Source: a virus
Taxonomy: Duplodnaviria > Caudoviricetes
DNA length: 57,858 nt
IMG/VR virus record: IMGVR_UViG_3300021197_001472
Span: 1 to 57,858 of that record
Strand: one strand, 5' to 3'
Program-made: the position numbers and the translations under genes
In this document: in pieces, positions 608-57,590 of the stretch
Layout: each line of letters opens with the position of its first letter
How positions within the stretch are numbered: the stretch's first letter is position 1
Notes under the pieces: generated by a model
Database searches by the model: none
What the model was told of the DNA's origin: nothing
The model's input: the letters and a program-made list of their open reading frames with translations, nothing else

Positions 608-963
608 ATGTCGTCTCCAATTCTTGGTAAGTTTCTGCATTCAGCACGGCCTCGCTGTTCAACATCCTCGATGATCTGTTCGAGGGGTGTGACAGTGATG
701 TTGTCCCAACGCTTCTTGAATTTGTATGCGTCGCAATCCTCTTCGAGATACACATACCGCTCATCGTGGAAAGAGAAGCTGCTGAAATCACTAGGCTTCA
801 TACTCATGCGTTCAAGCATGTCCTTCGGTACACGTATCCATCCATGGCCTGAGTCGCTGATGAACAACAACTTGCTATGGTGTTTCATAATCCTAGCCTT
901 CATCACGTCGACGTAGCCAAGCTCGTCCATTAACTTTTCTGCGTATGTAAATTCGTTTGTCAT
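604..963 (-). CDS. Hypothetical phage protein (DSGHGW...YLEEDCD type)
   Basis: 119-aa ORF with AGGAAACACCAC-ATG start; motifs resemble small phage early proteins. Confidence 0.8.
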   Translation of the reverse strand: MTNEFTYAEKLMDELGYVDVMKARIMKHHSKLLFISDSGHGWIRVPKDMLERMSMKPSDFSSFSFHDERYVYLEEDCDAYKFKKRWDNITVTPLEQIIEDVEQRGRAECRNLPRIGDDI

Positions 964-982
964 GTGGTGTTTCCTTTCTAAG

Positions 983-1291
983 TTAAGCGTTTAATTTCTC
1001 TACCTCTTCGTCTGTCCAGCAGTCAGGACACACAACCTCAGTGGTCGGAAGCCCTTCCTTGCATGTGGCTTCGACTTCGAAGATTTCGTACTCAAGGGTG
1101 AGTTCTCCGCACCGCCAACAATCAATCATCTGGCACTCAGCACATTGGTATCCGTGGCGAAGCTGACCTTCTGCGAAGACTTCGGTTTCTGTGTCAGTCG
1201 TGCAAGAGATACGATCGACAAACTTGTCGCTACCCCACGACGTGTCTTCGCCGCAAAAGCAACAACGATCTCCGATCTCTAATGTTTTCAT
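983..1291 (-). CDS. Cys-rich (Zn-finger-like) hypothetical protein
   Basis: Four CxxC pairs; RBS AAAGGAAACACC-ATG. Confidence 0.75.
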   Translation of the reverse strand: MKTLEIGDRCCFCGEDTSWGSDKFVDRISCTTDTETEVFAEGQLRHGYQCAECQMIDCWRCGELTLEYEIFEVEATCKEGLPTTEVVCPDCWTDEEVEKLNA

Positions 1292-1303
1292 GGTGTTTCC
1301 TTT

Positions 1304-1966
1304 CTAGTGTACGAGTTCGCCCCATTGTTCAGCCATTGCTTCTGCAAAGGCGGGGAAGAAACGGCTTCGATCTTCTGATCTTGTCGGACTAGGTGGAGCT
1401 AAGTGGATGTCTTGCCGAGCCGTTGTTCCATCGAGAGTGCCAGTCGGCACTAACGTTGGTAAGTTCTGCAACCATAGACAGGTCTTCTTACTCACATTGT
1501 CTGGCCCGTCTTCGTCGTGGCCAAACTCCCATGGGTTTACGATCTGTTCATACTTGCGGAAATTTCTGATGCGTTCCTTCGCTCTCCAGTGCATGATCGG
1601 GTTCTCGACACAGATCATTGGAACATCTGCATTGAGTAGATCACCGAACAACTCGCAACCTTCGTCGAGTTCTCGCATAACATCCTCGTGTGTCATACCA
1701 CTGGGTGGATCTTCTGGCTTGAACCACCGGACACCGGAGTTGCAAAGCCTAGTGCATGGTGGATGGCAAACGATGAGCATGTCGAAGTGTTGTGTCGCTA
1801 ACATGTCACGCACGTCACACTGGAAATGTCGATTGGTTGGTACTTCTGAGGGCAACAAGTCACAACTGAATGCGTTGTGCCCACGTCGAACAAAGGCATC
1901 GCGTACCATACCAGATTTCTCACAACCAATCAGTATATCTTTCGGGTTATCCGTTTGCTGGAACAT
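1304..1966 (-). CDS. Phage-type DNA (cytosine-5) methyltransferase
   Basis: ILIGCEKSG (motif I-like), SCDL, HPPC catalytic motif IV, VENP motif VI; start ATG 1966 after AGGAG. Confidence 0.75.
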   Translation of the reverse strand: MFQQTDNPKDILIGCEKSGMVRDAFVRRGHNAFSCDLLPSEVPTNRHFQCDVRDMLATQHFDMLIVCHPPCTRLCNSGVRWFKPEDPPSGMTHEDVMRELDEGCELFGDLLNADVPMICVENPIMHWRAKERIRNFRKYEQIVNPWEFGHDEDGPDNVSKKTCLWLQNLPTLVPTGTLDGTTARQDIHLAPPSPTRSEDRSRFFPAFAEAMAEQWGELVH

Positions 1967-1976
1967 TGTCAGTCTC

Positions 1977-2264
1977 CTAGTTATTGAGGTTGCCGAGCTT
2001 GTACTCACCGCTCTTGATTTTCTTGCGTGTCTCTGCGATACCTTCGTTGAGAAACTCATTTCGATACTTGCTTGTCGTTCTTGAGTAATCCCAGTAATGC
2101 TCATCGAGCATGACCTCGCCAGACCATGTCTTGATTGCGATCTTTTGTCCGTAGGACACAAAGCATTCGCCATTAGCGAGGTGCAAAACCATCTGGTTAG
2201 CAACTGGCTTACCACTACGAGGACTCCGCATGGGTTCGAATTTCAATGCTGTCGTCGACCTCAT
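1977..2264 (-). CDS. Hypothetical phage protein (SY...WDYSRTTSKY type)
   Basis: ATG 2264 overlaps the upstream TGA; GGAGG RBS. Confidence 0.75.
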   Translation of the reverse strand: MRSTTALKFEPMRSPRSGKPVANQMVLHLANGECFVSYGQKIAIKTWSGEVMLDEHYWDYSRTTSKYRNEFLNEGIAETRKKIKSGEYKLGNLNN

Positions 2265-2650: not shown

Positions 2651-2659
2651 GACTTTCTC

Positions 2660-2896
2660 CTAGCTATGGGTGTAACCGTCAGGCTCAATGCCCAACCACA
2701 TGTTCCCTACGAAGGGAACCATTAAAGTTTCGTAATCGTAGTCCCGTGCTTCACCAACCAAACCTTGGACGGAGCCGAGGAACTCTCTATATCCTGGCTT
2801 AGTAAATCGATCGTCTGCCGACTGGATTCTCTGGAAGACTCGCTTGAGAGCGTGTCGTTGTGCTTGTGTAACTTTCAAGCCGTTTATGTTGGGCAT
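2660..2896 (-). CDS. Hypothetical phage protein (WLGIEPDGYTHS C-terminus)
   Basis: 78-aa ORF with AAGGA RBS. Confidence 0.75.
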   Translation of the reverse strand: MPNINGLKVTQAQRHALKRVFQRIQSADDRFTKPGYREFLGSVQGLVGEARDYDYETLMVPFVGNMWLGIEPDGYTHS

Positions 2897-2910
2897 AGTA
2901 AAATCCTTCT

Positions 2911-2945
2911 AAAAAAAAAGCGGCTCCCAAAAAAAGGGAACCGCT
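2911..2945 (-). terminator. Terminator-like hairpin
   Basis: AGCGG-C-TCCC/GGGA-A-CCGCT stem followed by a long T-run on the minus strand. Confidence 0.5.
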
Positions 2946-3022
2946 ATAGGTTTTTGGAGAAACAATTTGGAGAAGAAAATTCTCAGCGAACTATCTCTAA
3001 AGAGAAAAGAAAGGCGCGTATC

Positions 3023-3331
3023 CTACGTGGGATATACCCACCCACAAGGATGGCCAGTCTGATCAAACTTTGGGAGAGGTTCTCGTCGAACATCGGGGAT
3101 TTCTTCGGCAATCCAATTCACGTATTCGTCGTCAACGTGGGAGAAGTTGTCGTCAGTGTTTAACCAGTCCCGTGCCCCATCTGAGTCCGAATATCCATTG
3201 AGCATATTCTCTATCTCGTTATCAGTAGCTGATGCGTGGACTACTATCTCTGTTTCAAAGACGCAGGTTTTCACTTGCGTTACTATGATTTTCTTTAGTG
3301 GTGTTTCAAAGCTGTCTCGTTCGTTCCACAT
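3023..3331 (-). CDS. Hypothetical protein
   Basis: 102-aa ORF, AAGGGA RBS. Confidence 0.7.
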   Translation of the reverse strand: MWNERDSFETPLKKIIVTQVKTCVFETEIVVHASATDNEIENMLNGYSDSDGARDWLNTDDNFSHVDDEYVNWIAEEIPDVRREPLPKFDQTGHPCGWVYPT

Positions 3332-3413
3332 GTGTCGTTATCCCTTTCATGCGTCGTTAACCGCCCTACACAAATAGGACGAGGGGAAAAATTTGAAATA
3401 AAAGAAAAAAGAA

Positions 3414-3589: not shown

Positions 3590-3591
3590 GG

Positions 3592-5065: not shown

Positions 5066-5186
5066 GGTCTTCGTTCCTTTCAGAGTCGACGAAATTGTCA
5101 CCGAAATATCTCTAAAGAGAAGAAAGCGTACGCAATGCGGAAAGAACGGGACGACCAGTACTTCGTACTGGATTAATTTATTGTTT

Positions 5187-11940: not shown

Positions 11941-12182
11941 TGTCTACCATAACCATGAATGCTCTACCGCCAAACAACGACTACCAAGGTCTTACCTTTT
12001 ATGGATTCAAACTAGGTACGAATGGAAATCTTGACGTTGAACTAATCAATGACGGAAGCCTGATTAAAATTCCTGATCCCGACAATCAGTCTTCCGCTGA
12101 TTACAAGCATTACATGTGGACTGAAGATACGCTGACCTTTTCGTGGGGAACCAACGGACATCTGAAAATGGAGATACTATGA
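11940..12182 (+). CDS. Hypothetical tail-associated protein
   Basis: 80 aa, coupled at both ends. Confidence 0.6.
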   Translation: MSTITMNALPPNNDYQGLTFYGFKLGTNGNLDVELINDGSLIKIPDPDNQSSADYKHYMWTEDTLTFSWGTNGHLKMEIL

Positions 12183-13489
12183 GTACGATAATGGACTTAG
12201 GGAAGCTACGCTTCTACTGGGCTGGCGATTATAACGCCGCTACAGAATACGAATCAAATGACATCGTACGATATGGTGGTAACGTCTTCGTATACATCTA
12301 TGGATTAAAGACCGCTGGTAACCCTCCCACTGACACAACCTATTGGGCCAAGATGGTTGAAGGCATGAGCTTCGATGGCGTCTGGGCATCTGGCACAACA
12401 TATCAAGCTGGAGACAGTGTCACCCACGGTGGTGTTGTCTACATAGCAAGTCAAACCACAACCGGAAACACGCCGCCAAATGCAACGTACTGGTCAGTAT
12501 TTGCAGACGGCATACAATGGGAAGACGCTTACAACAACGCGACGGGATACCAGAAGAACGACGTAGTTTCTTACGGCCCATCAATATACATTGCAAAACA
12601 AAACACAACTGGCAACCTGCCAACGGACACAACATACTGGGATAAATTCGTAGAAGGCATCAGCGCATCAGCCGTCTACAACGCGGCAACGGCTTACGTT
12701 CCAAATGACCTCGTTGCTTACGGGGGTAACATCTACCAAGCCATTGCAAACACAACTGGCAACTTACCCACCGATACATCCAAATGGTCGATCTTCGTGG
12801 CAAGCATTAATCCACGAGGAAATTGGGCAACCTCGACCGCCTACAATGTCAACGACCTCGTACAATACGGAGGTAACACCTATCGCGTTCTCATATCACA
12901 CTCATCTGGAACTTTCGCAACCGACTTAGCCGCCTCGAAGTGGCAGAAATTCACGGGAGGGATCGAATGGAAGGGCACATGGGCTACGTCAACTGCGTAC
13001 AAAGTAGGCGATATTTTTCTATACGACGTAAGTTCGTACATTGTCATTGCGGATCACACATCCGCGACATTCGCTGGGGATTCAGCAAATTACGAGCAAC
13101 TAGCAGTTGGTGCAAACATAGCCAATGTGGTGGGGCAAAGTGGTAAATTCCTTACAACCAACGGAACGATCACACAGTGGGCCGAAATCCCACCAGCAAC
13201 CGAACAGACGTGGCTAATCAAAACAGCGAACTACACTGCCGCTGTCTACGACAGAATTTTCGCCAACACGTCTGGCGGTGTATGGACACTCACACTCCCT
13301 GCATCTCCGACAATTGGACAGTGGGTGCAAGTCAACGATGTATCAGGCTCATGGGCAACAAACAATCTGACGATTGCGCGGAACAGTACCAACATGATGG
13401 GCGGGACAACCAATCTGGTGGGTAACGTCGCAAACTCGTCTTTTTACCTCGTGTTTTCGGACGCGACAAATGGCTGGAGAATAGTGTAA
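12179..13489 (+). CDS. Tail fibre protein with CBM5/12-like repeats
   Basis: About 6 repeats of (W/Y)xxxTxYxxnDxVxYGG...PT.TTYW; start ATG 12179 after GGAG. Confidence 0.8.
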   Translation: MSTIMDLGKLRFYWAGDYNAATEYESNDIVRYGGNVFVYIYGLKTAGNPPTDTTYWAKMVEGMSFDGVWASGTTYQAGDSVTHGGVVYIASQTTTGNTPPNATYWSVFADGIQWEDAYNNATGYQKNDVVSYGPSIYIAKQNTTGNLPTDTTYWDKFVEGISASAVYNAATAYVPNDLVAYGGNIYQAIANTTGNLPTDTSKWSIFVASINPRGNWATSTAYNVNDLVQYGGNTYRVLISHSSGTFATDLAASKWQKFTGGIEWKGTWATSTAYKVGDIFLYDVSSYIVIADHTSATFAGDSANYEQLAVGANIANVVGQSGKFLTTNGTITQWAEIPPATEQTWLIKTANYTAAVYDRIFANTSGGVWTLTLPASPTIGQWVQVNDVSGSWATNNLTIARNSTNMMGGTTNLVGNVANSSFYLVFSDATNGWRIV

Positions 13490-17141: not shown

Positions 17142-17162
17142 GGCCGAGAAAGGAAACACCAC

Positions 17163-18191
17163 ATGTCTATGGAACAAGAAGATCCAATCGCACGTATCGC
17201 CGCTAACCAATTAGGTCAGCCACCTGCACCACCTGCTCCACCTGCACCACCACCTTCTGCCCCCGACGCAGATACAGCTATGGACAAGGCTCAAACTGAT
17301 GCGGCCCCAACAACAGCCGACGATAAAACCAACATGGAGCCTATCCAAACATTTAAGGTAATGATGGACGGTGTCGAGCAAGAACTCAGTGCCCCTCAAA
17401 TAGAAGGGACATTCGCTCGATATAGAGATCTCAACCACAAACATGCACAACGAAAAGATATGGAACCATTCGATAACATGGTTTCTAAGCTTGCAGAGTC
17501 AGGTAAGCCTCGCGCTGAGATCATAGGAAACATGTTCGAGTTAATGAAAAAGGGCATGGATAAAAATACAACAATGGGTGATGACGGCGTTCCCTCTGCA
17601 CGTCCAGCCGAAGATTCGATGCCCTCCCAAGATATTGGCTCCGAAGATCCATACGAAAGATGGACGCGAGAAAATGATCTCTCCACTATGCCACCTGGAT
17701 TCAGAGAGCAACAAGCTCAAATAGCACAGATGTCCCAACAAATGGGAGCATTACAACAAATGCTTGCACCCATTCTACAAAATGCACAAGGAACCGCACA
17801 GAAGGCTGTTCAAAGTCAAGAGAAGGCAAATCAAATGAAAGTAGATGCTGCCAAAGATCGCATAGCCGCGAACATGGATCGTTTAGCCGACTCGCTTGGC
17901 CTTACAGAAGAAGACGCACCCATGTTCAACGAATACATAAAGGAACGCGGTTTTGGCTTCCCTGATTTTGAAGATCCCAACCTTCTTAAAATGGTATTGA
18001 CCGATTATACAAATGCCAAAAACGGCCCCGAAATGGATCGTCTCCGCGCAATCAACGAGCGAAGACAAGCCTATCAAGGAACGATGGTCGCTTCCCCTGC
18101 TGATGGAGCAAGCCCTGCCCCATCTGGTGCAGATGAAATGATTAGCCGTCTTGCCGACAAGCAGTTCAACAAAAATTCTGGGATGGCATAA
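17163..18191 (+). CDS. Capsid scaffolding protein
   Basis: Acidic Pro-rich N-terminus, FKVMMDGVEQEL motif, coiled-coil, upstream of MCP. Confidence 0.7.
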   Translation: MSMEQEDPIARIAANQLGQPPAPPAPPAPPPSAPDADTAMDKAQTDAAPTTADDKTNMEPIQTFKVMMDGVEQELSAPQIEGTFARYRDLNHKHAQRKDMEPFDNMVSKLAESGKPRAEIIGNMFELMKKGMDKNTTMGDDGVPSARPAEDSMPSQDIGSEDPYERWTRENDLSTMPPGFREQQAQIAQMSQQMGALQQMLAPILQNAQGTAQKAVQSQEKANQMKVDAAKDRIAANMDRLADSLGLTEEDAPMFNEYIKERGFGFPDFEDPNLLKMVLTDYTNAKNGPEMDRLRAINERRQAYQGTMVASPADGASPAPSGADEMISRLADKQFNKNSGMA

Positions 18192-23367: not shown

Positions 23368-24924
23368 ATGGCCAGAATCCAGCAGTTACACCCAGGGAAT
23401 TACCGAAGCACAGGAAATATCGATGACGAATTTAACTCTGTAATTCGATACCTTGTCAGCGGTGAAAAGGGAGATTTCACATTAGGGGAGTTGATGTCTG
23501 TCCTGTTCGATAGCACGGGCAAACTCATAGCTCCCATTGAAATGCGATTGGATGGTTCATCAAACCTACAATACAGGGTCGGTACATACACCGACACAAC
23601 CACTGGCTGGACTACAATAGTTGCCGCTTCAGAAATCAGAGGAGCTGCGGGAGCCGATTTAGGTACAATCGAAGGCCCACTTTTTAACGGTGGGACTCTA
23701 TTTACAGCCACATCTGGTCAAACTGTGTTTTCGTACAACCACGAGACTACAGATGACCTCATGGTATTCATAGATGGTATCCTTCAAATCCCGACATCCT
23801 ACACAGGAAACACCAGCAACAATACCGTTACACTTTCGGCTGGCGCGACTACTGGCCAAAAGGTCTATATCATCAAGCTTCGGGCAAACTCCGTTTCGAA
23901 TTTTCGAAGAACCTCAGCCACTGCGACAACAAACCAAGCAGTCTTCCCGTTTGCTCACACATCTGACGAAAAAATACTCGTATTCAGAAACGGCCTGTTC
24001 CAAACAGAAGGTGGTTCAAATGATTACACGGCTTCGAGCGATCAGAACACAGTCACTTTCAATACCGCTCTAGCTCTTAACGACGAAGTCACAATCCTTA
24101 CGGTCGAGAATACAGCCAATACAAAAGTATCTGGCCTCGTAACAGCCGACGACTATCTTGATAGCAGTGGCTTCATCCCATATTCCAAACTCGCAATAAC
24201 CGCTGGACAGATTCCGCAAGACCGCGTGGCTAACCTCGCATCTCTCACGGCAAACAGAGGCAAAACATTCGTCTCAGCTTCTGCTCCCACAGGAGCAGAT
24301 GCAGTGGCTGGTAATTTCTGGATAGATACATCTACTTCTCCAGACACACCCAAGTTCCACGACGGGGTTCAATGGTTAGACTTCGCGTCTCAAACAACCA
24401 TACCAACATTTACTGTTACTGACGCATTGAAAGCCCTCCACATAAACTCATCTGGCACAGGCTTAGAGTTCAGAACCGTCGATCTATCCGCATATGTCCC
24501 TTTAAGCACAGTCGGGGCCGCAAGTGGGGTAGCCGCCCTAGACTCAACCGGACGACTGGCCGTTTCACAAATACCAACAGTTATGGCCCTAGACAGCTTA
24601 CACTTCGTTCAGTCTGGTAACACAACGAGTACAACTTCTTTTGTGATCAAGCGCATCTATGGAGAAATGGTACGCATAGACAAGATCAGCGTTAGGACAT
24701 CGAGCGGGACTTGTGACATCACATTGCAAGTCAATGGTGTGAACGTAGCTGGCTTCACCCCAATCAGTGCATCATCTACACCCGTCGAACAAAACTTGGC
24801 CAACTCTATCAGCGTAGACGCTCAAACCGTAAACGCTTCTAAGACCATTGGCTTTGAGGCATCAAACGTCTCTACCGCCGCTGACATCGAGATCGTATTG
24901 GCTGTAACAAAGGTGGCTCCTTAA
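23368..24924 (+). CDS. Tail structural/fibre protein
   Basis: Tandem TATxGQTVF...VFxDG beta repeats; GNFWIDTS; GVAALDSTG fibre motif. Confidence 0.7.
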   Translation: MARIQQLHPGNYRSTGNIDDEFNSVIRYLVSGEKGDFTLGELMSVLFDSTGKLIAPIEMRLDGSSNLQYRVGTYTDTTTGWTTIVAASEIRGAAGADLGTIEGPLFNGGTLFTATSGQTVFSYNHETTDDLMVFIDGILQIPTSYTGNTSNNTVTLSAGATTGQKVYIIKLRANSVSNFRRTSATATTNQAVFPFAHTSDEKILVFRNGLFQTEGGSNDYTASSDQNTVTFNTALALNDEVTILTVENTANTKVSGLVTADDYLDSSGFIPYSKLAITAGQIPQDRVANLASLTANRGKTFVSASAPTGADAVAGNFWIDTSTSPDTPKFHDGVQWLDFASQTTIPTFTVTDALKALHINSSGTGLEFRTVDLSAYVPLSTVGAASGVAALDSTGRLAVSQIPTVMALDSLHFVQSGNTTSTTSFVIKRIYGEMVRIDKISVRTSSGTCDITLQVNGVNVAGFTPISASSTPVEQNLANSISVDAQTVNASKTIGFEASNVSTAADIEIVLAVTKVAP

Positions 24925-42549: not shown

Positions 42550-42909
42550 CTATCCATCGTCCGTAAGTGACTTTTTTTTTGGGGGTCGATCGTCGTTAAT
42601 ATCCCCCGTCCACAAAGCGTGGATCAAAATCCCGACACATGCTCTCACATGGCCTAGGTGTGTAGCCCCGCTCTCAGGATCTACGTCTTCCCTATTCTGA
42701 AATTTGAGGAGATGTCTCAGAGCCGCATCAACATAGATGCTCACGCTTATTCTTTCTTCAGCCCAGTTCCATGGCTCATACTTATCTGCACCATGTGCAA
42801 ATGCTTTCGCTTCCTGTATCTGTGCTTCCGGTGGTATCAATCCTAGACGTGGCTTCTTAATTCCTTGTGCGGTCTTCGGATTTTTATCTGGCAGTTTAGT
42901 CTTCTTCAT
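42550..42909 (-). CDS. dATP/dGTP diphosphohydrolase-domain protein (DUF5664-like)
   Basis: KPRLGLIPP, GADKY..WNW, AALRH, DPESG..HLGH motifs. Confidence 0.75.
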   Translation of the reverse strand: MKKTKLPDKNPKTAQGIKKPRLGLIPPEAQIQEAKAFAHGADKYEPWNWAEERISVSIYVDAALRHLLKFQNREDVDPESGATHLGHVRACVGILIHALWTGDINDDRPPKKKSLTDDG

Positions 42910-45877: not shown

Positions 45878-46297
45878 TTATAGCTCCACCGTAACTTTGG
45901 CAGGGCCAGGGACTCTCGTAAGCGCAGGGTTAAGTATGTCCTGATCCTCTGGAGCTAACGTGTTGTACACAGATTTCTGTACCACCAACTTCTTCTCGAT
46001 GTAGTTGGGCAAGATGTCTGTATCATTGAGTTGTTGAGCTAAAAGTTTCTGATCCCATTTGAAATTCTCGCTCCGCTCAACGACAACTTTAGTTGAGCCT
46101 ACTTCTTTTTCAACCACACCAAAGTCGACAGGCATACCTGCTGTCACTATCGTCTTTAGCTTCTTTACTTTTTCTTTCAGTGTGGAAAGTTGTTCTTCAA
46201 AGACTGCTAGGCTTTCTGCATTCCTTAGCCATTCTAAATCTTCGTCACTTAGTCTTGTAGTTGTAGTCCATTTATTTGACATAACTCCGTCATTCAT
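45878..46297 (-). CDS. Hypothetical replication-module protein
   Basis: First gene of the leftward operon; AGGAAACACCAC-ATG start. Confidence 0.75.
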   Translation of the reverse strand: MNDGVMSNKWTTTTRLSDEDLEWLRNAESLAVFEEQLSTLKEKVKKLKTIVTAGMPVDFGVVEKEVGSTKVVVERSENFKWDQKLLAQQLNDTDILPNYIEKKLVVQKSVYNTLAPEDQDILNPALTRVPGPAKVTVEL

Positions 46298-46435
46298 GTG
46301 GTGTTTCCTTTTCTTTAAAAATAATGGTCGCTATGACCGACCCAACTAGTTTAGCATCTTTACATAACTTTTGTCTAGCATTATTTCTAAAGCAATGTTA
46401 CTAATGCTGTTCGAAAAAATAACGAAGAGAGAAGG
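46298..46435. promoter_or_regulatory. Divergent promoter/operator region
   Basis: AT-rich gap between divergent operons; three AGCAwnnTTwC repeats. Confidence 0.6.
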
Positions 46436-46681
46436 ATGAAGTTCGAAGTGGTAATAAATTACAAAGGTTTAATAGGTGATTGTGGCACCCCTCAAGAGGT
46501 AGCCGCCCAGCTTGGCTGTCACTACACGACAGTCTATCGATGGCTTAGAGGGCACCCGCCCAATGTCGATGTACTTTCCAAAATCATAACAAAATTCAAT
46601 TTAAATTTAGCTAACTATATAATAGATGGAGATTACATTAATGACTCAACCAATGAAGGATCAGCGAGAGAGACTGTATAA
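46436..46681 (+). CDS. Cro-like HTH regulator
   Basis: PQEVAAQLGCHYTTVYRWLRG helix-turn-helix. Confidence 0.75.
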   Translation: MKFEVVINYKGLIGDCGTPQEVAAQLGCHYTTVYRWLRGHPPNVDVLSKIITKFNLNLANYIIDGDYINDSTNEGSARETV

Positions 46682-49802: not shown

Positions 49803-50280
49803 GCGCAAGTGCAAGCATTGCGGTAAGACGTATCCCTCGCATCATTTCAGATGGGAGAAAAAGGCCAAGGCCATATATCAAACTCGTGAGTGTCACAAGT
49901 GTTATCGTAAACGCTTCAAGGGATACAACGATCGAGACCTGCACAATGGCGAGTACAGATTAAAGCGCGTCCTCCGTGATGCAAGGTGGAAGGCAAAGAA
50001 ACGTGGCTACGATTTCGCAATCACCTTACAGGATTTACTTGAGATGTTTGAAACTCAGGGGGGAAAGTGTGCGCTCACTGGCCATCACATGACACTGGGT
50101 TCATCCGATGATCTGGAGCTACGCCGCTACGCGGCTTCTCCCGATCGCATTGACAACGAACGGGGATACACCAATGACAATGTATGGCTCGTCTGCCAAC
50201 ATGCAAACGCAATGAAATCCTCAACCGATCTGGAAGACTTCATTGACTGGTGCAGGGCTGTCACTCGCACACAGAAGTGA
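49759..50280 (+). CDS. HNH-like endonuclease
   Basis: CALTG, SPDRIDN.RGY..DNVWLVC..AN.MK; start position uncertain. Confidence 0.75.
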   Translation: MDSSVRQSGSSSETERKCKHCGKTYPSHHFRWEKKAKAIYQTRECHKCYRKRFKGYNDRDLHNGEYRLKRVLRDARWKAKKRGYDFAITLQDLLEMFETQGGKCALTGHHMTLGSSDDLELRRYAASPDRIDNERGYTNDNVWLVCQHANAMKSSTDLEDFIDWCRAVTRTQK

Positions 50281-50340
50281 CATAAACTTTCGGGCACAAC
50301 TTGGTAAACTTCACTGTTAAAAAAAAATTACCACACAAAA

Positions 50341-50376
50341 AAACACCCTTGCTATTATCGCAAGAGTGTTTAGTTA
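50341..50376 (+). promoter_or_regulatory. Candidate sRNA promoter overlapping a 12-bp inverted repeat
   Basis: TTGCTA(50349)-N16-TAGTTA with upstream A-tracts; AAACACCCTTGC-N7-GCAAGAGTGTTT (could also be a minus-strand terminator). Confidence 0.45.
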
Positions 50377-50380
50377 TTGT

Positions 50381-50455
50381 GCCGTCAACTTGAAATGTGG
50401 TGTTTCCGTTGGCTTAGGACTAGTGAGTTGCGTTATGCGCTCCTAGTCCTTTCTC
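50381..50455 (+). ncRNA. Candidate trans-acting antisense small RNA
   Basis: Hairpin 1 displays UGUGGUG loop within AUGUGGUGUUUCC; hairpin 2 AGGACUAG/CUAGUCCU followed by UUCUC; seed complementary to the RBS-AUG motif of about 9 genes. Confidence 0.55.
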
Positions 50456-50659
50456 ACATTCGCTATCAATTAATTCATCAATCATTCGTGTCATAATGCG
50501 GTGCGCTTCATTCGATCCGATCAACCCGTGCTTTGTTCTTATCTTTGGGATCTGGGCTTTGACAGCTTTGATCATAACAACCTGGCTTTCTTTCCAGCCC
50601 TCGTATCTTTTCGCGGCAACATCATCTTCACTGATATTGTTTAACAAATCTTCATACAT
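50420..50659 (-). CDS. Hypothetical protein
   Basis: 79 aa; AAAGGA RBS. Confidence 0.65.
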   Translation of the reverse strand: MYEDLLNNISEDDVAAKRYEGWKESQVVMIKAVKAQIPKIRTKHGLIGSNEAHRIMTRMIDELIDSECEKGLGAHNATH

Positions 50660-50762
50660 CCAATTGGATTCCTTTCGGTTGGTTGAACTACCAACAAATA
50701 ATCCATATTTTTTTCAAGGTGAATAGTGTTAGAGTTTCATCAATGGTGAAAAAAATTCACCA

Positions 50763-51518
50763 CTAGATTGCAAACCTCACGTTGGTAGATCTGTCTGGCG
50801 TAATCATAGATCCTTCGCCCAGATCCATGAAGTATTCTATGAGTTCAGACGTATGATCAAACACCTCGTACCATTGTCGTAGCAAAGTTTGAGCGATCAT
50901 CGTGTCCTTGCGTTGGTTCCTAGCTACATATATGGCTTGCTTGACTAACTCATCTCTCGTAAACATCATACGACCAGCTACCCTGACATAGTACAGGAAT
51001 GGAGAATGATACGATCCGGTTTTCTTTTCTCTGTTATACAATCTAGACTTGATGCGGCTATCTGTTTTGTTTGCCAACTGTTTTTCTATATTACGAGAGG
51101 TACAATCGGGCAGACCCAAACCGCTGATGCCCAAGCGTTCACCAGACAGATCCGTGCCTGTCCACAAGTAGTCCCTGTCCCTAGTAAAAATACAAGCATA
51201 CGTTCCTTCTAAGATAGCACACTCAACTACTCCCCACATACTGGCTGGGGTATTATCCCGCAGGGAAACCAATTTATTTTTCCGCGCAAAGAGAAGTCCT
51301 TGGGCCACACCCGCCAGCCAACTCATACGGTACATCCTTGTCATTTCTGGAACCATATGATTTGTGTAATAGGTCGCTTGATCTGGCAGACTACTCGCCC
51401 AGTACGCTCCCTCCCATGGACATTCCGTTGGCGAGAACGAATACCTCTCAGCCATAAGTTTTTCAGCCAACCGATTCGGCTCTGTTATATTTATCTCACT
51501 ACTACCTATAATAGTCAT
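50763..51518 (-). CDS. Hypothetical protein
   Basis: 251 aa; GAAGGG RBS. Confidence 0.7.
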   Translation of the reverse strand: MTIIGSSEINITEPNRLAEKLMAERYSFSPTECPWEGAYWASSLPDQATYYTNHMVPEMTRMYRMSWLAGVAQGLLFARKNKLVSLRDNTPASMWGVVECAILEGTYACIFTRDRDYLWTGTDLSGERLGISGLGLPDCTSRNIEKQLANKTDSRIKSRLYNREKKTGSYHSPFLYYVRVAGRMMFTRDELVKQAIYVARNQRKDTMIAQTLLRQWYEVFDHTSELIEYFMDLGEGSMITPDRSTNVRFAI

Positions 51519-51723: not shown

Positions 51724-52869
51724 CTATAAACTCTGCACTGCACTAGCCAAATCATCAGGATGTAACGAGGCATACCTCATCGTTGTCTGGATGTTCTGAT
51801 GTCCCATCAACCGTCTGATTGTATCTAGTTGATGTCCTTTAAATCGTAACCAACTGGCAAACGTATGACGCAAGTGATACAACGTCGTGCCCTCTGGCAA
51901 GTCAGCCAGTTCTCTGGCCTTCTGCCATGGGTGCTTACAGAAATGTGGCTTCTGACTTTGACCGTCCTTGCCTACGATTGTATACCCACCACCAAATTGA
52001 TTCTTAAAAACGAAGCCGTATCGATCATGCCCTGGTATCTCGTTCAACGTCTCGTAAACAAGCGGATGTATTGGCACACTTCGCTTACGAAGTTGCTTGG
52101 TTTTCCCCTTGTAATTTTTCAGAACTAAGCTGCTAGAAGTAAGGTCATTGCGAAGGAACACATCATCCCACTTGAGCCTAGCCAACTCCACTGGCCGTGC
52201 CCCTGTATAAACAAGACACACATAGATCGCCAGCTTGTTTGGCCATCTCTCTTTGATGATATCAAGCAGTCTAGTTACTTCATCTTGCGTAAGGAAAATA
52301 TCCTCAAGATCTGGCTCAGGTAAAGCAACCATAGTCGGTGCGCGATAATCACTGTTGCCACCATGCTCTCTCTCCCACCGCTCCACGTAATTACACATGG
52401 CCCGAAATATTCCCAAGTATCTATTCACGCTTGAGTCACTCAACGGTGTCCTTGCAATGCTACGCCAGTGGTCGAATACACGATCTACCTCTACCTTTGT
52501 CCTTGGCAAATCCCAGTTTAACAATCCCCGTGTAACCGTCTTCGCCATACTCGTGGTATTCCCACTGCAAGAAGGATCGTTGGTATACACATGGAGCATG
52601 TCTTTTACCTTCCAGTGATTCACCCTCGACCAATCACCAATCAAAACTGGCTTAGACTCACGAACACTCTTGCGTTCAACCCGTGTCAATTCCCTCAACT
52701 GATATGCCTTAGCCAACACGGGGTTGTCTAATTCAATCTCTCTCAACTTTCTAAGTAGTACTTCGCTGGCCGCATCCTCACACGTAAGACCAGTAGACTC
52801 CTGTATCTTTACGCCAAGGTACTCACCCCACAAGCTGTACCGCTTGCCTCTTTTCCGTAACTTTATCAT
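51724..52869 (-). CDS. int: Tyrosine recombinase/integrase
   Basis: TGAR, HLRH, MGH and TTMRY catalytic residues. Confidence 0.92.
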   Translation of the reverse strand: MIKLRKRGKRYSLWGEYLGVKIQESTGLTCEDAASEVLLRKLREIELDNPVLAKAYQLRELTRVERKSVRESKPVLIGDWSRVNHWKVKDMLHVYTNDPSCSGNTTSMAKTVTRGLLNWDLPRTKVEVDRVFDHWRSIARTPLSDSSVNRYLGIFRAMCNYVERWEREHGGNSDYRAPTMVALPEPDLEDIFLTQDEVTRLLDIIKERWPNKLAIYVCLVYTGARPVELARLKWDDVFLRNDLTSSSLVLKNYKGKTKQLRKRSVPIHPLVYETLNEIPGHDRYGFVFKNQFGGGYTIVGKDGQSQKPHFCKHPWQKARELADLPEGTTLYHLRHTFASWLRFKGHQLDTIRRLMGHQNIQTTMRYASLHPDDLASAVQSL

Positions 52870-52890
52870 GTGGTGTTTCCTTATTTTAAT

Positions 52891-53325
52891 CTACGTTGAA
52901 TATAAATCCTTATTGATTGCTCGATCCTCCGCACTCCAGCTTGTACTCCACGTTGGCTTCAGCCCACAGAACCGTTCGAACTCTACGTCTGTGTAACTAC
53001 CCATAGCTTCTGTATACATTCTGGAAGTCATCAATCGATTCCTAACCGTTATCCCTGTGCCTCTAATGATATGGTCTTGTGCCCCTCTTATGTGGCCCTT
53101 CACTGTACTTTCTGTACAGCCCAACCGACTGGCTATCTCACCATTGGAAGCCCCGCCCGTAAGCATCAGCATCACTGCATGTTGCTTGCGACTGAGACGT
53201 TCTATCCACTGGTTTGATTCTTGGCTGACGCTTGAGCCAGCGTTACCTCCACTGGCCATTCGTATCAACATATCGACTTGGGCTTCGAGCCTCCCAACTC
53301 TTTGCTCTAAGTCTTCGCTTATCAT
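52891..53325 (-). CDS. LuxR-type HTH regulator without receiver domain
   Basis: LSRKQHAVM..LTGG.SNGEIA.RLG.TESTVKGH. Confidence 0.8.
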   Translation of the reverse strand: MISEDLEQRVGRLEAQVDMLIRMASGGNAGSSVSQESNQWIERLSRKQHAVMLMLTGGASNGEIASRLGCTESTVKGHIRGAQDHIIRGTGITVRNRLMTSRMYTEAMGSYTDVEFERFCGLKPTWSTSWSAEDRAINKDLYST

Positions 53326-53360
53326 GTGGTGCCTCTTTTCTGTTAGTAATAATGCTAAAC

Positions 53361-53579
53361 TTATTTAGTGTCTATGCCAACTTCTGTCAACTTTCGACGT
53401 GCCCCGTTCGCAAACTGCTTACGCCACTTGGGGTTATCAAGTGCCTGTGCTATGGCGTATCCAAGCATAGCCCCGTCAGTGTCACTGTCTGTATCGAACA
53501 CGGCACCTCCAAGGGTGCCGTTAGGACTCACTACAATGATTGCTCCCCCTTCCTCTAGTACAAGGGTGGCCTTACTCAT
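53361..53579 (-). CDS. Hypothetical protein
   Basis: GAGGAG RBS; coupled to the vWA gene. Confidence 0.65.
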   Translation of the reverse strand: MSKATLVLEEGGAIIVVSPNGTLGGAVFDTDSDTDGAMLGYAIAQALDNPKWRKQFANGARRKLTEVGIDTK

Positions 53580-55453
53580 GCTACTCTCCTCTCATTACTT
53601 GCCTTAAAGTTCTCACCCAACAACATCTTCGCAAAGTCATCCATCACCTTGCTGGCAAGAGCATCAACATCCTCCACGACGACGCTTCGATCACACCATC
53701 TCCCTATGTAGTCCTTACCAATGCCGACACCGACGACCTCGATGCCTTTATTCTGCATCGTTCTTATCGCTTGCCGTGCAGTGTCCTGACTGTTTGGCTC
53801 TCCATCGGTCACAAGGATAATGATCTTCCGATCCGCGTGTCGTTTCTCTAGCCTTGGGTATGTAAGATACAGGGCATCAGTCAGCGGAGTATCTGCATGG
53901 GATAGTGTCGTACCAGTGCCAAAGAAGGGAAGGCATTTGGCTACCCGCATACCGAATGGCTTGACTGCCAACACCTGTAATGGGTAGTAACGACTGAAGC
54001 CTTTCTCTTTAGCTTGAAGTTCCCTGCATTCATAACTGTTCCAGTTACCTCCCAAGAAAAGCAAAGCCTCATTGCCGACACCGATATTCTCCATCGTCTT
54101 AGACAATGCATAACCCATAGCCATGGCACTCTGCATTCTTGGGCCACTCATACTAGACGAACCATCAATGAGTATCTGCACATCAGTATCTATCTCTGGC
54201 GTACGTTGGCGTTTCCTAAACACGTCGGGATGCAGGTTGAATGCACGAACGAGACGACTTGGATCTAATCTCCCATCCATGTGTCCACTGTCCCAGCGTC
54301 GTGTCATCTGGGCAACAAACCCCCGCTGTATCTTGCGACGCATAACGCTTATCTTCCCACCGACCATCTTCGATAGCTCGACGTAGGGTTTCAGCCCATT
54401 CTTCAATCCATCCTTGCCAAACATTTGCTCGGCTGGCGTCTCTCCACTGTACAATGACCACTTCGATTCACCCCCTCCAAGACTCTGCCAGTTACCAGGT
54501 TCAAACACTCTGTCCCTGGTTGTAGTGTATGGCCTGTAAATCGCATCCCCTCTATTGCCGTGGCCATGTGGTGCATGGTCAGAGTCATGCCGTGTGATCT
54601 GCTCCATGTATGCCTTAGCCTCTATGTTGAAGGGCTTGGTTATATCAATCACTGGCTCGGCATCCCGATCAGCGAGAAGACGGTCGTTGTGCATGTCCTC
54701 CCACTCCTTGGCCTGTGTCCTCACCTTGATCTGGCATGGTGCCATGCCATCCTTGTCGTACTCACGCATGGCATCCGCAATCTTCTTAGCCACACTAATC
54801 GCCTCTTCCGGTGTCTCAACCGCTTCGATCCAGCTATAGTACTCCCGCAAATGATCCAGTTGATCTGGCTTGAATGACCGCCAACAATGCTTACTCCACT
54901 TACCTGCATACCCCTTGGCCTGACCACTGAACCACGTCATCGACTGCGGCCCCATGTAAGATATGGGCATCCGTACATATGAATCGTCCCTGAGTACTGC
55001 ATCATCATCGTCACTCGCAGTCACCTGTGTCGCAACGATAGCACTGAACGTATCCATATCTATCCGGTCATGGACATCGGATAGGAACTGCAATGATCCC
55101 TCGTACTCGGCAAGCCAGAGCTTCTCGATACGACAATCCTCTACAACATTCAGAAGGTATGCATACAACTCGTCTTTGTCTCTCCGTATCTCAGCAACCT
55201 TCTCGTGCAAACTCCTTGGCGTAAACATGATGTGGGCACACTCGTGGTGGTAGTACCCACGGCTGAAGCTGATCTCATCATCCGTAAGGTACAACTCGTG
55301 CCCGTATATGGCAGGTAGGAATATGACATTGCCATCTGTACAGGCTTCGTTACCCTCGAACTGTACGACAACATCCATCTTGCCGCCTAACATCTTGGCA
55401 CCCGTAACGATTGCTCGTTCGAATACCTCGGTAGTCATTGGTCTTCTATGCAT
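53576..55453 (-). CDS. CobT-like vWA-domain protein with N-terminal HExxH region
   Basis: HECAH, NVVEDCRIE, GRLD, ILIDGSSSM MIDAS, TP, VTDGEP. Confidence 0.85.
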   Translation of the reverse strand: MHRRPMTTEVFERAIVTGAKMLGGKMDVVVQFEGNEACTDGNVIFLPAIYGHELYLTDDEISFSRGYYHHECAHIMFTPRSLHEKVAEIRRDKDELYAYLLNVVEDCRIEKLWLAEYEGSLQFLSDVHDRIDMDTFSAIVATQVTASDDDDAVLRDDSYVRMPISYMGPQSMTWFSGQAKGYAGKWSKHCWRSFKPDQLDHLREYYSWIEAVETPEEAISVAKKIADAMREYDKDGMAPCQIKVRTQAKEWEDMHNDRLLADRDAEPVIDITKPFNIEAKAYMEQITRHDSDHAPHGHGNRGDAIYRPYTTTRDRVFEPGNWQSLGGGESKWSLYSGETPAEQMFGKDGLKNGLKPYVELSKMVGGKISVMRRKIQRGFVAQMTRRWDSGHMDGRLDPSRLVRAFNLHPDVFRKRQRTPEIDTDVQILIDGSSSMSGPRMQSAMAMGYALSKTMENIGVGNEALLFLGGNWNSYECRELQAKEKGFSRYYPLQVLAVKPFGMRVAKCLPFFGTGTTLSHADTPLTDALYLTYPRLEKRHADRKIIILVTDGEPNSQDTARQAIRTMQNKGIEVVGVGIGKDYIGRWCDRSVVVEDVDALASKVMDDFAKMLLGENFKASNERRVA

Positions 55454-55715
55454 GTGTGGTGTCTCCTTTTATTTCGACGAATTTTTTACGTTTCAATTTA
55501 ACAGGGTTAGTATGTGCGTCTTGCCAATAGAACTCTGGCCCACCATGAAATTTTTCTAAGGTATAATTGACCGTCGATCCATCACGATACGTCGCTTCAG
55601 AGGCTTCTATCTCTTTTGCTTTTTCAAGTGCATCTGCCCTGCTCGTAGCCATTACTTCACAATATGCAATGTGGTATACTGAACCGCTTACAAAATACTT
55701 CTTTTCCTTACTCAT
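55446..55715 (-). CDS. Hypothetical protein
   Basis: AGGAGACACCAC-ATG start. Confidence 0.7.
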   Translation of the reverse strand: MSKEKKYFVSGSVYHIAYCEVMATSRADALEKAKEIEASEATYRDGSTVNYTLEKFHGGPEFYWQDAHTNPVKLKRKKFVEIKGDTTHA

Positions 55716-55726
55716 GTGGTGTCTCC

Positions 55727-55927
55727 TTATCCTATCAATGATTGTACAATGGAGCGGTCGTCGTCTTCGGCATACTTCTTGACGAAGTTATTCCGTACCC
55801 GCCTTGCCGCCTCTTTCTGCGACCTTGCCTGTACAGATTTGACTTCGTCTATTTGATGCTCAACGCCAAGCTTATCGACTAACCTGTCAACAATCCTTGC
55901 TTGTATCCTGATGTCATACTTAGGCAT
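55727..55927 (-). CDS. Hypothetical protein
   Basis: GAGGAGG RBS. Confidence 0.65.
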   Translation of the reverse strand: MPKYDIRIQARIVDRLVDKLGVEHQIDEVKSVQARSQKEAARRVRNNFVKKYAEDDDRSIVQSLIG

Positions 55928-56111
55928 CGTTGTCCTCCTCTGGTAAATACCGAACGTCTAGATGCCATGAGTAATTTGAGAACTTTCCCCGTGTCTCATC
56001 ATCTCCTTCTAGTATGTCTCCGATTAAACATGCGAACATGTCTCGCAAATGTGGATGTCTATCCAGTCTTGCTTCCATGTCGAATGGTGTATAGTCTTCT
56101 ACGTCTATCAT
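55920..56111 (-). CDS. Hypothetical acidic protein
   Basis: AGGTG RBS, coupled. Confidence 0.6.
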   Translation of the reverse strand: MIDVEDYTPFDMEARLDRHPHLRDMFACLIGDILEGDDETRGKFSNYSWHLDVRYLPEEDNDA

Positions 56112-56347
56112 GTGTCGTTCACCTTTTTGATTGTTGAATAGATTTTCTTAGACAGCCTCAGCTTCACATCCCTGTAGGGATCGTGGATGTACACCCACTT
56201 CAATCCCGTCTTGGCCCATACCCAACGATGACCACTCCCAACCTTGGGGATCTCATCTTGCAGAACCATGTGTACAAACTGACAGCCCTTCCACTTGTTG
56301 CCCTTTGGTTTGGGCAACCTCTTCTCTCTCGACCACGCCATGATCAA
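56108..56347 (-). CDS. Hypothetical basic protein
   Basis: GGAGG RBS; coupled to the AAA gene. Confidence 0.65.
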   Translation of the reverse strand: MIMAWSREKRLPKPKGNKWKGCQFVHMVLQDEIPKVGSGHRWVWAKTGLKWVYIHDPYRDVKLRLSKKIYSTIKKVNDT

Positions 56348-57564
56348 CCTCCGAAGTGGGCGTCGATAGCCTCGTTCATCTTGGCTATGTCCTCATCAGA
56401 GGCACGACCGGATAGCGTGTACCCGATAGCCGATTTGATTGCTGCCTTATCCTGACCCCACACATCGATCATCTTGGCCACAGTCGTGAGACCACGAGGC
56501 GTGATGGTTGTGAGTACCTCGCCCTTGGTAAACGCATCCCGAATGTGGTTGGCTATACGAACGAGCTTGGTTGCAACACTATGCTTGCAGGTAGGAACCT
56601 TCGCAGTAATGAGCGCGACCTCTTCGTCATGGTCAAGATAACTGGCCTCAACCCAGACTTGAAACCTGTCGATGAAAGCTTGGCTCTGTATACGCGCACC
56701 CTGATAGCACCCATACTCATCACCCTGCCCCTTGGTATTGGCAGTCGCAACGATACGGAACATCGGATCAGCCTTGATTACTCGACCGCCATCCTCAGTG
56801 ATACGCAACGTGCGACCATCCTCAAGCACTGGCTGAAACGCATACAGGACATCCGATCGAGCGAAGTCGATCTCGTCTGCCTCTAATATGTATGGCCCCT
56901 GCATTGCTTGCGGAAGCACACCGTCCACAAACTTTGATGCAGTCACACCGTCTATACTTACGAGGGTGTCACGCCCAAGGAAATCGAGACGTGTCATCTC
57001 GCTGTCCATGTTGACTCGCAACGATGGTTGTTGTGTACGTGCAGAGATCTGTTGGATGAGCGTCGTTTTACCAGTGCCCGTATGACCGAAGTGATACACG
57101 GGAAGGTCATGCTCCAGTGCATACAGGATCGGACACAAGACATCTGGGTTGAACAGGTAGTCTGGATCAATGTCTGGTACATCTGGATGCACACCGTTTG
57201 GCCAAAAGAACTTGGTCACCATCTGCATCATAGGTGCTGGCAACGTAAGGTCACCCCTCCGCATGGCTTCCTTGGTTTCTTCTGGAGCAAACAACTCATA
57301 CGCTGGCACTCGCTCGGTCTGGTAATCGAAGTCGATACGGGAGTTCATCTTGGCAAGATCCTTGTCACTTGTCCTGATGATCTTGCCACCGTTGGCAAGC
57401 TGTTGTTGCAAGTCCTTGATCGTGCGCTGGTACTTCTCCTCGTCCATAATGTGGAGCCTCTCCTGACTTTGAAGAGCCGCCTGTACTTCCTGATCGGCAA
57501 CGCCCTGGCTAACCATTGGCTGGCCAGTTACTTCGGCTTGCAAGTTATCTAAGTCTGTACTCAT
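56344..57564 (-). CDS. CobS/MoxR-like AAA+ ATPase
   Basis: GHTGTGKT, ADEID, TANT.G.GD, AFIDRF; start MSTDLD after AGGAAACACCAC. Confidence 0.88.
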   Translation of the reverse strand: MSTDLDNLQAEVTGQPMVSQGVADQEVQAALQSQERLHIMDEEKYQRTIKDLQQQLANGGKIIRTSDKDLAKMNSRIDFDYQTERVPAYELFAPEETKEAMRRGDLTLPAPMMQMVTKFFWPNGVHPDVPDIDPDYLFNPDVLCPILYALEHDLPVYHFGHTGTGKTTLIQQISARTQQPSLRVNMDSEMTRLDFLGRDTLVSIDGVTASKFVDGVLPQAMQGPYILEADEIDFARSDVLYAFQPVLEDGRTLRITEDGGRVIKADPMFRIVATANTKGQGDEYGCYQGARIQSQAFIDRFQVWVEASYLDHDEEVALITAKVPTCKHSVATKLVRIANHIRDAFTKGEVLTTITPRGLTTVAKMIDVWGQDKAAIKSAIGYTLSGRASDEDIAKMNEAIDAHFGG

Positions 57565-57590
57565 GTGGTGTTTCCTTCTTTGGTTGAAAT

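Follow-up and report, generated by a model that had tools for sequence, protein, structure and literature searches.

To our knowledge, start-associated sequences (SASs) had until now been described only in actinobacteriophages. In Cluster K mycobacteriophages, the available text of Pope et al. (2011, PMC3203893) presents them as asymmetric elements of 11–13 nt, found in ~10–19 copies per genome, 3–7 bp from a start codon that is mostly ATG, in one orientation and in the non-structural half of the genome. They combine a Shine-Dalgarno (SD) core with conserved positions unable to pair with 16S rRNA, are virtually absent from the host genome, occur occasionally without a linked start, and are conserved across subclusters and also at genes of different families; a subset carries an extended element upstream (ESAS), an inverted repeat and putative promoter (PMC3203893, same portion of text). 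In Cluster EF Microbacterium phages, a 13-bp SAS-like motif occurs 10 times in the position of the ribosome-binding site (RBS), conserved far above the usual RBS level and, in the portion of the paper at hand, without an assigned function (Jacobs-Sera et al. 2020, PMC7302621). The accessible part of a 2024 publication still calls the role of SASs ill-defined (PMC11373665). Here we report a start motif, GGARACACC(AC), repeated at unrelated genes of a viral genome of 57,858 nt (IMG/VR record IMGVR_UViG_3300021197_001472), hereafter the window, meaning the whole stretch of DNA that was analyzed. By analogy, the best reading of this motif is a SAS in the Cluster K sense, new in its sequence, phage family, and host group.

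The initial annotation of the window had singled out an exact 15-nt sequence, AGGAAACACCACATG, at five dispersed gene starts, together with variants of it. All five copies are where it placed them, and each of the listed variants (AGGAGACACCACATG, AGGAGACACCACACATG, AGAGGCACCACATG, AGGAAACACC) stands directly before an ATG. Genes were called (79 predicted) as the longest nonoverlapping open reading frames (ORFs), each starting at the first candidate with a generic SD 4-mer, the spacer being ignored. The five exact and four variant copies all lie at ORF starts, so that the motif is found on 9 of the 79 predicted genes, always in the orientation of the gene and ahead of ORFs of 89–625 aa. These copies, one gene-less copy with the element around it, and one partial match are given here by position:

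961–975, minus strand: exact AGGAAACACCAC+ATG, start of ORF 604..963 (119 aa, no family).
1289–1301, minus strand: variant AGGAAACACC+ATG, with ACACC directly on the ATG (1291), start of ORF 983..1291 (102 aa); abutted by the TAG of the upstream gene.
3298–3307, minus strand: partial copy GAAACACCAC, without GG and without a start codon behind it, in codons 9–12 of ORF 3023..3331.
17151–17165, plus strand: exact motif, start of ORF 17163..18191 (342 aa); the sole copy in the structural block.
46295–46309, minus strand: exact motif, start of ORF 45878..46297 (DUF7173, 139 aa), which opens the leftward recombination/replication operon.
50330–50455, minus strand: whole element around the gene-less copy, with a lineage-specific hairpin, the motif hairpin, and an intrinsic terminator.
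50392–50408, minus strand: gene-less ("orphan") copy CGGAAACACCACATTTC, unchanged at 17/17 positions across three lineages.
52867–52881, minus strand: exact motif, start of the tyrosine integrase gene 51724..52869.
53323–53336, minus strand: variant AGAGGCACCAC+ATG (also written AGAGGCACCACATG), ATG at 53325, start of the LuxR/GerE-type helix-turn-helix (HTH) gene 52891..53325.
55451–55467, minus strand: variant AGGAGACACCACAC+ATG (also written AGGAGACACCACACATG), ATG at 55453, start of the CobT-like vWA gene 53576..55453; within the final codons of the upstream ORF.
55713–55727, minus strand: variant AGGAGACACCAC+ATG (AGGAGACACCACATG at these positions), start of ORF 55446..55715 (89 aa).
57562–57576, minus strand: exact motif, start (57564) of the CobS-like AAA+ gene (406 aa).

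Chance or base composition as the source of the motif is ruled out by shuffles, by the core count, and by a k-mer test. The sequence AGGAAACACCACATG is present in five copies against 0.00 expected, and none of 100 dinucleotide shuffles contained any match. The core GGARACACC is clearly enriched over the shuffled background, with 10 occurrences versus 1.03 expected and none of 100 shuffles reaching 10; eight of the ten are at starts, one is gene-less (50399–50407), and one lies within a tail gene (23806–23814). In an unbiased k-mer test, CACCAC was found within positions −12 to −1 of 8/79 predicted starts versus 4/2135 other ATGs (Fisher p = 8e-10), and it ranked first among all 6-mers upstream of starts, above every SD 6-mer. 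The motif is carried by 8 of the 45 genes of the leftward non-structural arms versus 1 of the 34 structural/lysis genes, and its genes start with ATG in 9/9 cases, compared with 64/79 for genes overall. As the initial annotation had it, these genes are dispersed and unrelated: similarity between copies ends at ~17–19 nt, and the genes downstream have nothing in common.

In its anatomy, the motif joins an SD core, (A)AGGA(A/G), to a tract consisting only of C and A, ACACC(AC)n, which ends 0–4 nt before the ATG. The "invariant CACCAC spacer" first claimed for it is inexact: between ACACC and the ATG there are 0, 2, or 4 nt in the window, and 0–4 nt in its relatives; the motif is thus a movable element, not an invariant spacer. 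The partial copy GAAACACCAC, which had been counted among the variants, is indeed present but has neither the GG nor a start codon behind it; it may be a relic or a chance match. No variant fell in any motif copy among the 40 listed of ~47 found in two DNA sequencing runs (7.7 kb), a sample too small to carry much weight. The exact 15-mer occurs at 78 IMG/VR loci, which we consider chance matches: each holds a single copy, and blastn showed none to be related to the window. Literature searches for the motif and for conserved start motifs in phages gave no description of it and nothing beyond SASs; among the matches listed, the string belonged to primers and similar items from unrelated work.

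The window is a complete CRP-810-type marine podophage. The IMG/VR record behind it (57,858 nt) is rated 100% complete; its closest isolate is Roseobacter phage CRP-810 (61% identity in the capsid protein and 47% in the terminase, with the same gene order), and seawater metagenomes from several studies contain the phage. According to the portion of the paper at our disposal, CRP-810 typifies a family that is distributed globally and comprises 251 uncultivated genomes, the majority with cobS, cobT, luxR, and an integrase; its reported host is Roseobacter, with SAR11 and Sphingomonadaceae as predicted hosts (PMC11288001). No mention of ribosome binding, Shine-Dalgarno, or promoter came up when the paper was searched by word. 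Gene families in the window were assigned by Pfam and PHROG. They include a terminase, an SU10-type portal, and the major capsid protein; tail fibers containing CBM_5_12 repeats, together with an M15 endolysin; a Sak4-like ATPase, a Cas4-type nuclease, and a primase-polymerase/helicase; and, as lysogeny and accessory functions, the tyrosine integrase, the LuxR/GerE-type regulator, and the CobS/CobT-like AAA+/vWA pair. The label "scaffold" attached earlier to the gene 17163..18191 derives from its position only, as one of several genes upstream of the major capsid gene; we call it the scaffold-position gene. Scans of the window for tRNAs and Rfam families gave zero matches, and no GenBank phage, near or distant, matched it at the DNA level.

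Searches with single proteins (those of the scaffold-position and CobS genes) returned no relatives, and an alignment of the window and CRP-810 capsid proteins retrieved 391 in IMG/VR, of which the best 80 were used, and 16 in species genomes. Close relatives, with 91–92% capsid identity, are few: G002 (49.8 kb, 84% complete), its shorter twin G001, G003 (5.8 kb), and a 60.6-kb contig, G006:C23 (PBNR01000023.1), binned in a metagenome-assembled genome (MAG) labeled Gammaproteobacteria. The last has a 19-nt terminal overlap and is collinear with G002 across its contig ends; it is a circular phage genome and not an integrated prophage. A search with the gene-less copy added a third lineage, L218 (13.6 kb of it covered), and a further G002-like contig, L260. 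No new lineage emerged from an integrase alignment: apart from G002 and the L218 record, every sequence was ≤32% identical. The window and its sister genomes share ~65–73% DNA identity in conserved genes, and protein identities are 46% for the integrase, 44% for CobS, 35% for CobT, 46% for LuxR, and 91% for the capsid.

The motif is abundant in these relatives. G002 has 13 matches to GGARACACCAC at ≤1 mismatch versus 3 for a backwards control, and G006:C23 has nine exact and eight one-mismatch matches, all on one strand and between 3.6 and 27 kb, its start copies all falling within 13.6–27 kb, in the early arm. Counted by starts, there are 12–13 in G006:C23, 9–10 in G002, and three in the 13.6 kb of L218; the core GGARACACC itself is retained at 8–13 starts in each of two sister lineages. 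Orthologous starts could be compared between the window and G006:C23 for the integrase, LuxR, CobS, and a small ORF (for which homology is weak): the 11-nt core is identical at 39/44 positions (89%), versus 35/120 (29%, the random level) in the 30 nt upstream of the same starts. Descent alone therefore does not maintain the motif, and such sequence comparisons make it well supported that purifying selection acts on it beyond the needs of anti-SD pairing. The integrase motif is retained at the orthologous start in G002/G006:C23 and in L218; the LuxR orthologs begin with GGGGACACCACA+ATG in G006:C23 and GAGGGACACCACAA+ATG in L218, and the CobS ortholog with AAGGAGACACCGC+ATG in G006:C23. At 55713–55727, the motif and the first five codons are identical to the start of the weakly homologous gene of G006:C23. 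Other sites are private to one side: the scaffold-position, DUF7173, and CobT genes carry the motif only in the window (the G002 ortholog of CobT is without it), and in G002/G006:C23 alone it heads the ortholog of 2660..2896 and, approximately, that of the HTH gene 46436..46681.

Conservation in relatives, to which the initial annotation had tied its proposal, thus holds in two sister lineages but not in four more distant relatives, G008, G009, G010 (complete, capsid ~60%), and CRP-810. The k-mer test on these four returned only plain GGAG-type words at the top, the motif was not found at the annotated starts of CRP-810, and counts of the motif pattern in the more distant relatives equal those of controls. 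In MAG G006 outside the phage contig, five exact GGARACACCAC occur in ~3.5 Mb versus ~3.4 estimated under uniform composition. From these counts, the motif belongs to one phage sublineage, not to the family nor to that MAG. Since G006:C23 is a free circular genome, the MAG is no secure host, and the host label given by binning is weak. In CRP-810 itself (L084, positions 479–1827), four of the five first genes with upstream sequence have AGCC+ATG after a GGAG-type SD, which hints that neighboring early genes there also share spacer ends, although no k-mer stood out.

In many respects, the motif resembles the Cluster K SAS. The window holds nine start copies, five of them identical over 15 nt; the motif is asymmetric and keeps one orientation, sits near the start with a preference for ATG, joins an SD core to non-pairing positions, is biased to non-structural genes, and is conserved among related phages at different gene families, with one copy not tied to a start. 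There are also differences. The sequences are unrelated, GGARACACC(AC) here and GGGATAGGAGCCC as printed in the accessible text of the Cluster K paper (PMC3203893). The carriers are a CRP-810-type podophage of marine Proteobacteria in one case and siphophages of Actinobacteria in the other; here, the conserved non-SD part lies only 3′ of the SD, is made of C and A, and shifts its distance to the ATG by AC steps, and the conserved orphan copy is predicted to be folded into a hairpin. The Cluster EF motif differs in sequence and host phylum as well, and every copy of it is linked to an upstream ESAS, as far as the available text states, which mentions no orphan hairpin (PMC7302621). As neither sequence nor phage ancestry is shared with the published SASs (PMC3203893, PMC7302621), we regard the motif as an analog and not as a member by descent. 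Such an independent case would make SASs a recurrent solution instead of the quirk of one cluster, and it offers handles beyond those in the consulted parts of the SAS papers: a C/A tract with a variable distance to the ATG, unfolded starts, and a gene-less hairpin copy, the latter a concrete object for the study of motif recognition.

The most conserved of all motif copies has no gene behind it. This orphan copy (CGGAAACACCACATT at 50394–50408, minus strand) was absent from the earlier list of sites; over 50392–50408 it is identical at 17/17 positions in the window, in G006:C23/G002/L260, and in L218, in intergenic DNA that is otherwise unalignable. Where the integrase operon ends, it has convergent terminators on either side; it comes after the last ORF and ~20 nt before a strong minus-strand terminator (stem 50371–50341 plus T run). 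Single-sequence folds, one per lineage, predict the same arrangement in all three: a hairpin that differs by lineage, placed where the last ORF of the operon finishes, a hairpin made by the motif, and the terminator. In the predicted motif hairpin, the inner stem is GGAAA/UUUC and the loop CACCACA, the SD half being paired and the C/A half displayed, and the outer stem differs by lineage (CAAC/GUUG, CAUCC/GGAUG, AUCCU/AGGAU). Shuffles are much less stable than the whole element (z = −6.8, −5.5, and −3.6). Ribosome loading alone hardly accounts for a copy that has its SD half paired and shows CACCACA in its loop, and the conserved hairpin, as modeled, speaks in favor of specific recognition. 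In DNA terms, its geometry is att-like (GGAAA / CACCACA / TTTCC, inverted arms around a 7-bp center). An attB counterpart to the 17-mer was sought: there is no second copy in MAG G006 or in G007, the 16-mer occurs in 0/400 other genomes of the class of G006, and no attB was found among 90 metagenome and viral loci with the 16-mer. The loci among these that share flanks are only phage relatives and unrelated clusters, the largest of the unrelated ones being formed by metagenome contigs with conserved flanks that are not phage-like.

What could read the motif at gene starts? For 16S rRNA pairing we used the sequence of Kistimonas (G007), the host of a distant relative's prophage, whose 3′ tail is ...GGATCACCTCCTTA. 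Extended pairing with 16S rRNA was dropped as an explanation: the longest exact complement of the motif in this 16S spans 8 nt, the ATG among them, and in duplex energy the motif has no advantage over shuffles (fractions at least as good of 0.79, 0.30, and 0.82 for three motif lengths). AAGGA(A/G) is the SD, and ACACC(AC) is without complementarity to the 16S 3′ tail (L338), with the reservation that this 16S may not be that of the host. Motif starts are, on the other hand, markedly open compared with other starts. In 70-nt windows, the nine motif starts have a mean folding energy of −5.5 kcal/mol versus −12.2 at 69 other starts (p = 4e-4), and the mean unpaired probability from −16 to +3 is 0.70 versus 0.51 (p = 7e-4). 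Openness alone would allow many sequences and cannot explain why identical letters were retained. Selection beyond anti-SD pairing implies that something reads ACACC sequence-specifically, be it the 30S subunit with its proteins or a phage or host factor. The initial annotation had invoked recognition by an RNA or protein; the part that stands is selection for something other than an ordinary SD, and a dedicated reader would be a possibility. The weak folding of motif starts offers a plainer reason for part of the constraint, and the motif also served as microhomology at one cassette indel. No RNA-binding or RegA family was detected by Pfam, the only resource searched and one that a novel fold could escape, in the 79 ORFs (E ≤ 0.001) or in 28 unassigned early ORFs (E ≤ 0.5). 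Several small ORFs are common to the window and G006:C23 and missing from the motif-less relatives, none of them with a recognizable domain.

We therefore suggest, with a probability of roughly 55%, that the motif is an open cassette on which ribosomes land, acting in cis and recognized by its specific sequence, either by the initiation machinery or by another factor, with the shuffling of gene cassettes as a side effect. It would act in the mRNA as a lineage-specific translation-initiation cassette for the integrase, the LuxR-type regulator, the CobS/CobT-like pair, the first gene of the recombination operon, and small ORFs, that is, for mostly early, lysogeny, and accessory genes in the leftward arms, plus one gene of the structural block. 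Motif cistrons, mostly at junctions within polycistronic transcripts, would all receive the same open landing site, and this site could provide them with a common translational input. Being repeated, the cassette in addition provides microhomology for gene gain and loss, an event seen once, and its spread to unrelated genes is thereby aided.

Several points weigh against this proposal. The effect of the motif on translation is inferred computationally, and the conserved lineages number three, which is few. The 16S rRNA in the pairing test is that of a distant relative's host, and, as G006:C23 is a circular phage genome binned into a MAG, the chance-level count in MAG G006 may not reflect the host. 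As the tract is free of U and poor in G, its low folding is partly automatic and possibly a by-product. The enrichment of the motif in non-structural genes reaches only p = 0.07; strong initiation is not an expected need of an integrase or a regulator; and an orphan hairpin with its SD half paired is left unexplained by a ribosome landing site.

The orphan hairpin is the natural starting point for the best surviving alternative, a dedicated post-transcriptional regulon, which we consider possible though rather unlikely. Here, a trans-acting RNA-binding protein or small RNA would recognize GGARACACC(AC) and switch the gene set jointly, and the hairpin would belong to the same circuit. One option places it in the 3′ untranslated region of the integrase operon, as a decoy or a site of high affinity. 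In the other, its plus strand would be the gene of an anti-start RNA, able to pair through its UGUGGUG loop and its stem with 13 nt (GGAAACACCACAU) of each exact copy. The identity of the orphan at 17/17 positions amid unalignable flanks fits this well, as does the recurrence of the same fold three times with lineage-specific letters in the outer stem. On the plus strand, the predicted loop is complementary to the motif, and in G006:C23 and L218 a neighboring hairpin is followed by a U-rich tail. No sigma-70-like promoter was seen, however, on either strand of 50100–50800, and the strong T-run terminator serves the minus strand, which surely places the sense copy inside a transcription unit. 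Contigs from RNA libraries overlap 50348–50568, spanning the orphan, and 57533–57692 among other regions, but they are strandless and possibly DNA carry-over.

The pattern of substitutions bears on the same question. Twenty-six distinct start copies retain CACC/CGCC; together they depart from GGAAACACCAC 17 times, and 16 of these changes are transitions (14 A>G and 2 C>T), which would preserve pairing to a complementary RNA as G-U. This tally was made by eye and excludes three looser start copies with transversions; it depends on the admission rule and counts as a weak argument, and A>G at position 4 makes for a better SD as well. The motif and the orphan are invariant between lineages and give no co-variation signal, and no RNA-binding family was recognized in the phage proteins at E up to 0.5. 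Known regulators offer partial parallels. T4 RegA is a phage-encoded RNA-binding repressor that places many early genes under joint translational control and whose sites are AU-rich and loosely conserved; the motif likewise spreads one sequence over the initiation regions of many early genes, but here no RNA-binding family accompanies it in the 79 ORFs searched with Pfam. The c4 antisense RNA of P1/P7 blocks the translation of one operon through loops complementary to its ribosome-binding region; similarly, the plus strand of the orphan hairpin could, by prediction, pair with the RBS region of all motif genes, although these are ~10 dispersed genes here versus a single operon, and no promoter was found.

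A more specific version, in which the start motif and the orphan hairpin form one circuit, with a phage-encoded RNA element where the integrase operon meets the convergent replication operon, we hold to be somewhat more doubtful still. If its decoy form were true, the hairpin would mimic a start site and its CACCACA loop would titrate the reader. If its anti-start RNA form were true, the integrase, LuxR, CobS/CobT, the recombination operon, and the scaffold-position gene would be silenced together; a single RNA would then switch a dispersed regulon, giving SASs their first mechanism.

The comparison of G002 and G006:C23, 93–99% identical with cassette differences, bears on an alternative of another kind. 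A 512-nt gene cassette present in G002 and missing in G006:C23 has its junction within TGAAAGGA(G/A)AAC, common to both flanking starts; one replacement runs from 7 nt past a motif ATG exactly to the ATG of the next gene, and another deletion begins 5 nt past a motif ATG. The gain and loss of cassettes thus involve the motif, and this goes some way toward explaining why unrelated genes share it. Pushed further, the motif could be a recombination linker or hitch-hiker, an ordinary RBS copied between genes as co-infecting relatives exchange cassettes at gene starts, its uniformity reflecting shared descent plus gene conversion and its function nothing past a normal SD. This would agree with the different genes that carry the motif in different lineages and with the concentration of copies in the mosaic early arms. 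We nevertheless find it improbable. Unselected copies at the orthologous integrase, LuxR, CobS, and small-ORF starts should have decayed to the level of their flanks, the orphan is conserved without a cassette behind it, mosaic borders at gene edges are expected in any phage, and motif-to-motif homology was found at only one junction among the 12 alignment blocks compared. In T4-type phages, PeSLs are mobile units of promoter and stem-loop that lie between small early genes and are used in cassette shuffling. The motif is like them in being a short regulatory repeat that doubles as a shuffling substrate, and unlike them in that the repeat is the translation start itself, with a single motif-to-motif junction. 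For annotation, it is useful as a mark of cassette boundaries in the mosaic early region.

Least probable is a DNA-level site, in which the repeats would bind a DNA-binding protein (as operator or roadblock), the orphan would be an attP core, and the start copies half-site look-alikes: the position of the orphan between convergent terminators at the end of the integrase operon, its inverted arms, and the integration of CRP-810 through a 13-bp core common to a tRNA-Thr gene (in the part of PMC11288001 available) would suit it, but the start copies hold one orientation and 0–4 nt to the ATG, needless for a DNA site, the attB searches described above were negative throughout, and an outer stem kept as a stem with changing letters fits a folded strand better than a host-matching site.

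Annotation of the AAA+ gene also gains from the motif, which marks the ATG at 57564, whereas the longest ORF would start at 57669. Alignment of the AAA+ protein with its relatives begins at residue 33 of the longest ORF, and, like the motif, this points to 57564 as the true start. Just upstream of the CobS start motif, at 57577–57625 (minus strand) in the window and upstream of 19865 in G006:C23, lies a terminator-like GC-rich hairpin with a T run within ~20 nt, leaving no space for a promoter between hairpin and motif in either lineage.

Two further repeats were observed near early starts. A second common start sequence, AA(A)GG(G/T)(A/G)(T/A)AACGACAC+ATG, precedes ORFs 3023..3331 and 55920..56111 (3329–3347 and 56109–56127, both minus strand), and a cassette gene of G002 is headed by a similar AAAGGAGAACGACA+ATG; this may be a diverged relative of the main motif. 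The other repeat, TCyCTTTAGrGATATTTCGG, occurs in the window between 2982 and 5127 (minus strand), with copies near 5116, 4802, 4451, and 3001, six times in G006:C23 and three times in G002. It sits 20–70 nt upstream of several early starts, which include motif starts in G006:C23/G002 and are non-motif starts in the window. Its arms co-vary (TCTC with GAGA, TCCC with GGGA), and no conserved −35 or −35/−10 consensus was seen with it. It could be a phage-specific promoter, operator, or hairpin, and by analogy it may be the counterpart of the Cluster K ESAS.

Among other features of the window, a 3164-aa ORF at 31485–40979 (plus strand), downstream of the tail genes, has no Pfam or PHROG match and has homologs at 27–37% identity in every relative compared; its product is probably an internal or ejection protein. 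A small protein encoded at 42550–42909 (minus strand) matches PF18909 (dATP/dGTP diphosphohydrolase N-terminal domain, E = 8e-27); it is common to the window and G006:C23 and missing in the four more distant relatives. Finally, the CBM_5_12 tail-fiber gene 12143..13489 contains, at 12307–12807 (plus strand), four 147-nt tandem repeats that are 67–73% identical to the reference copy.

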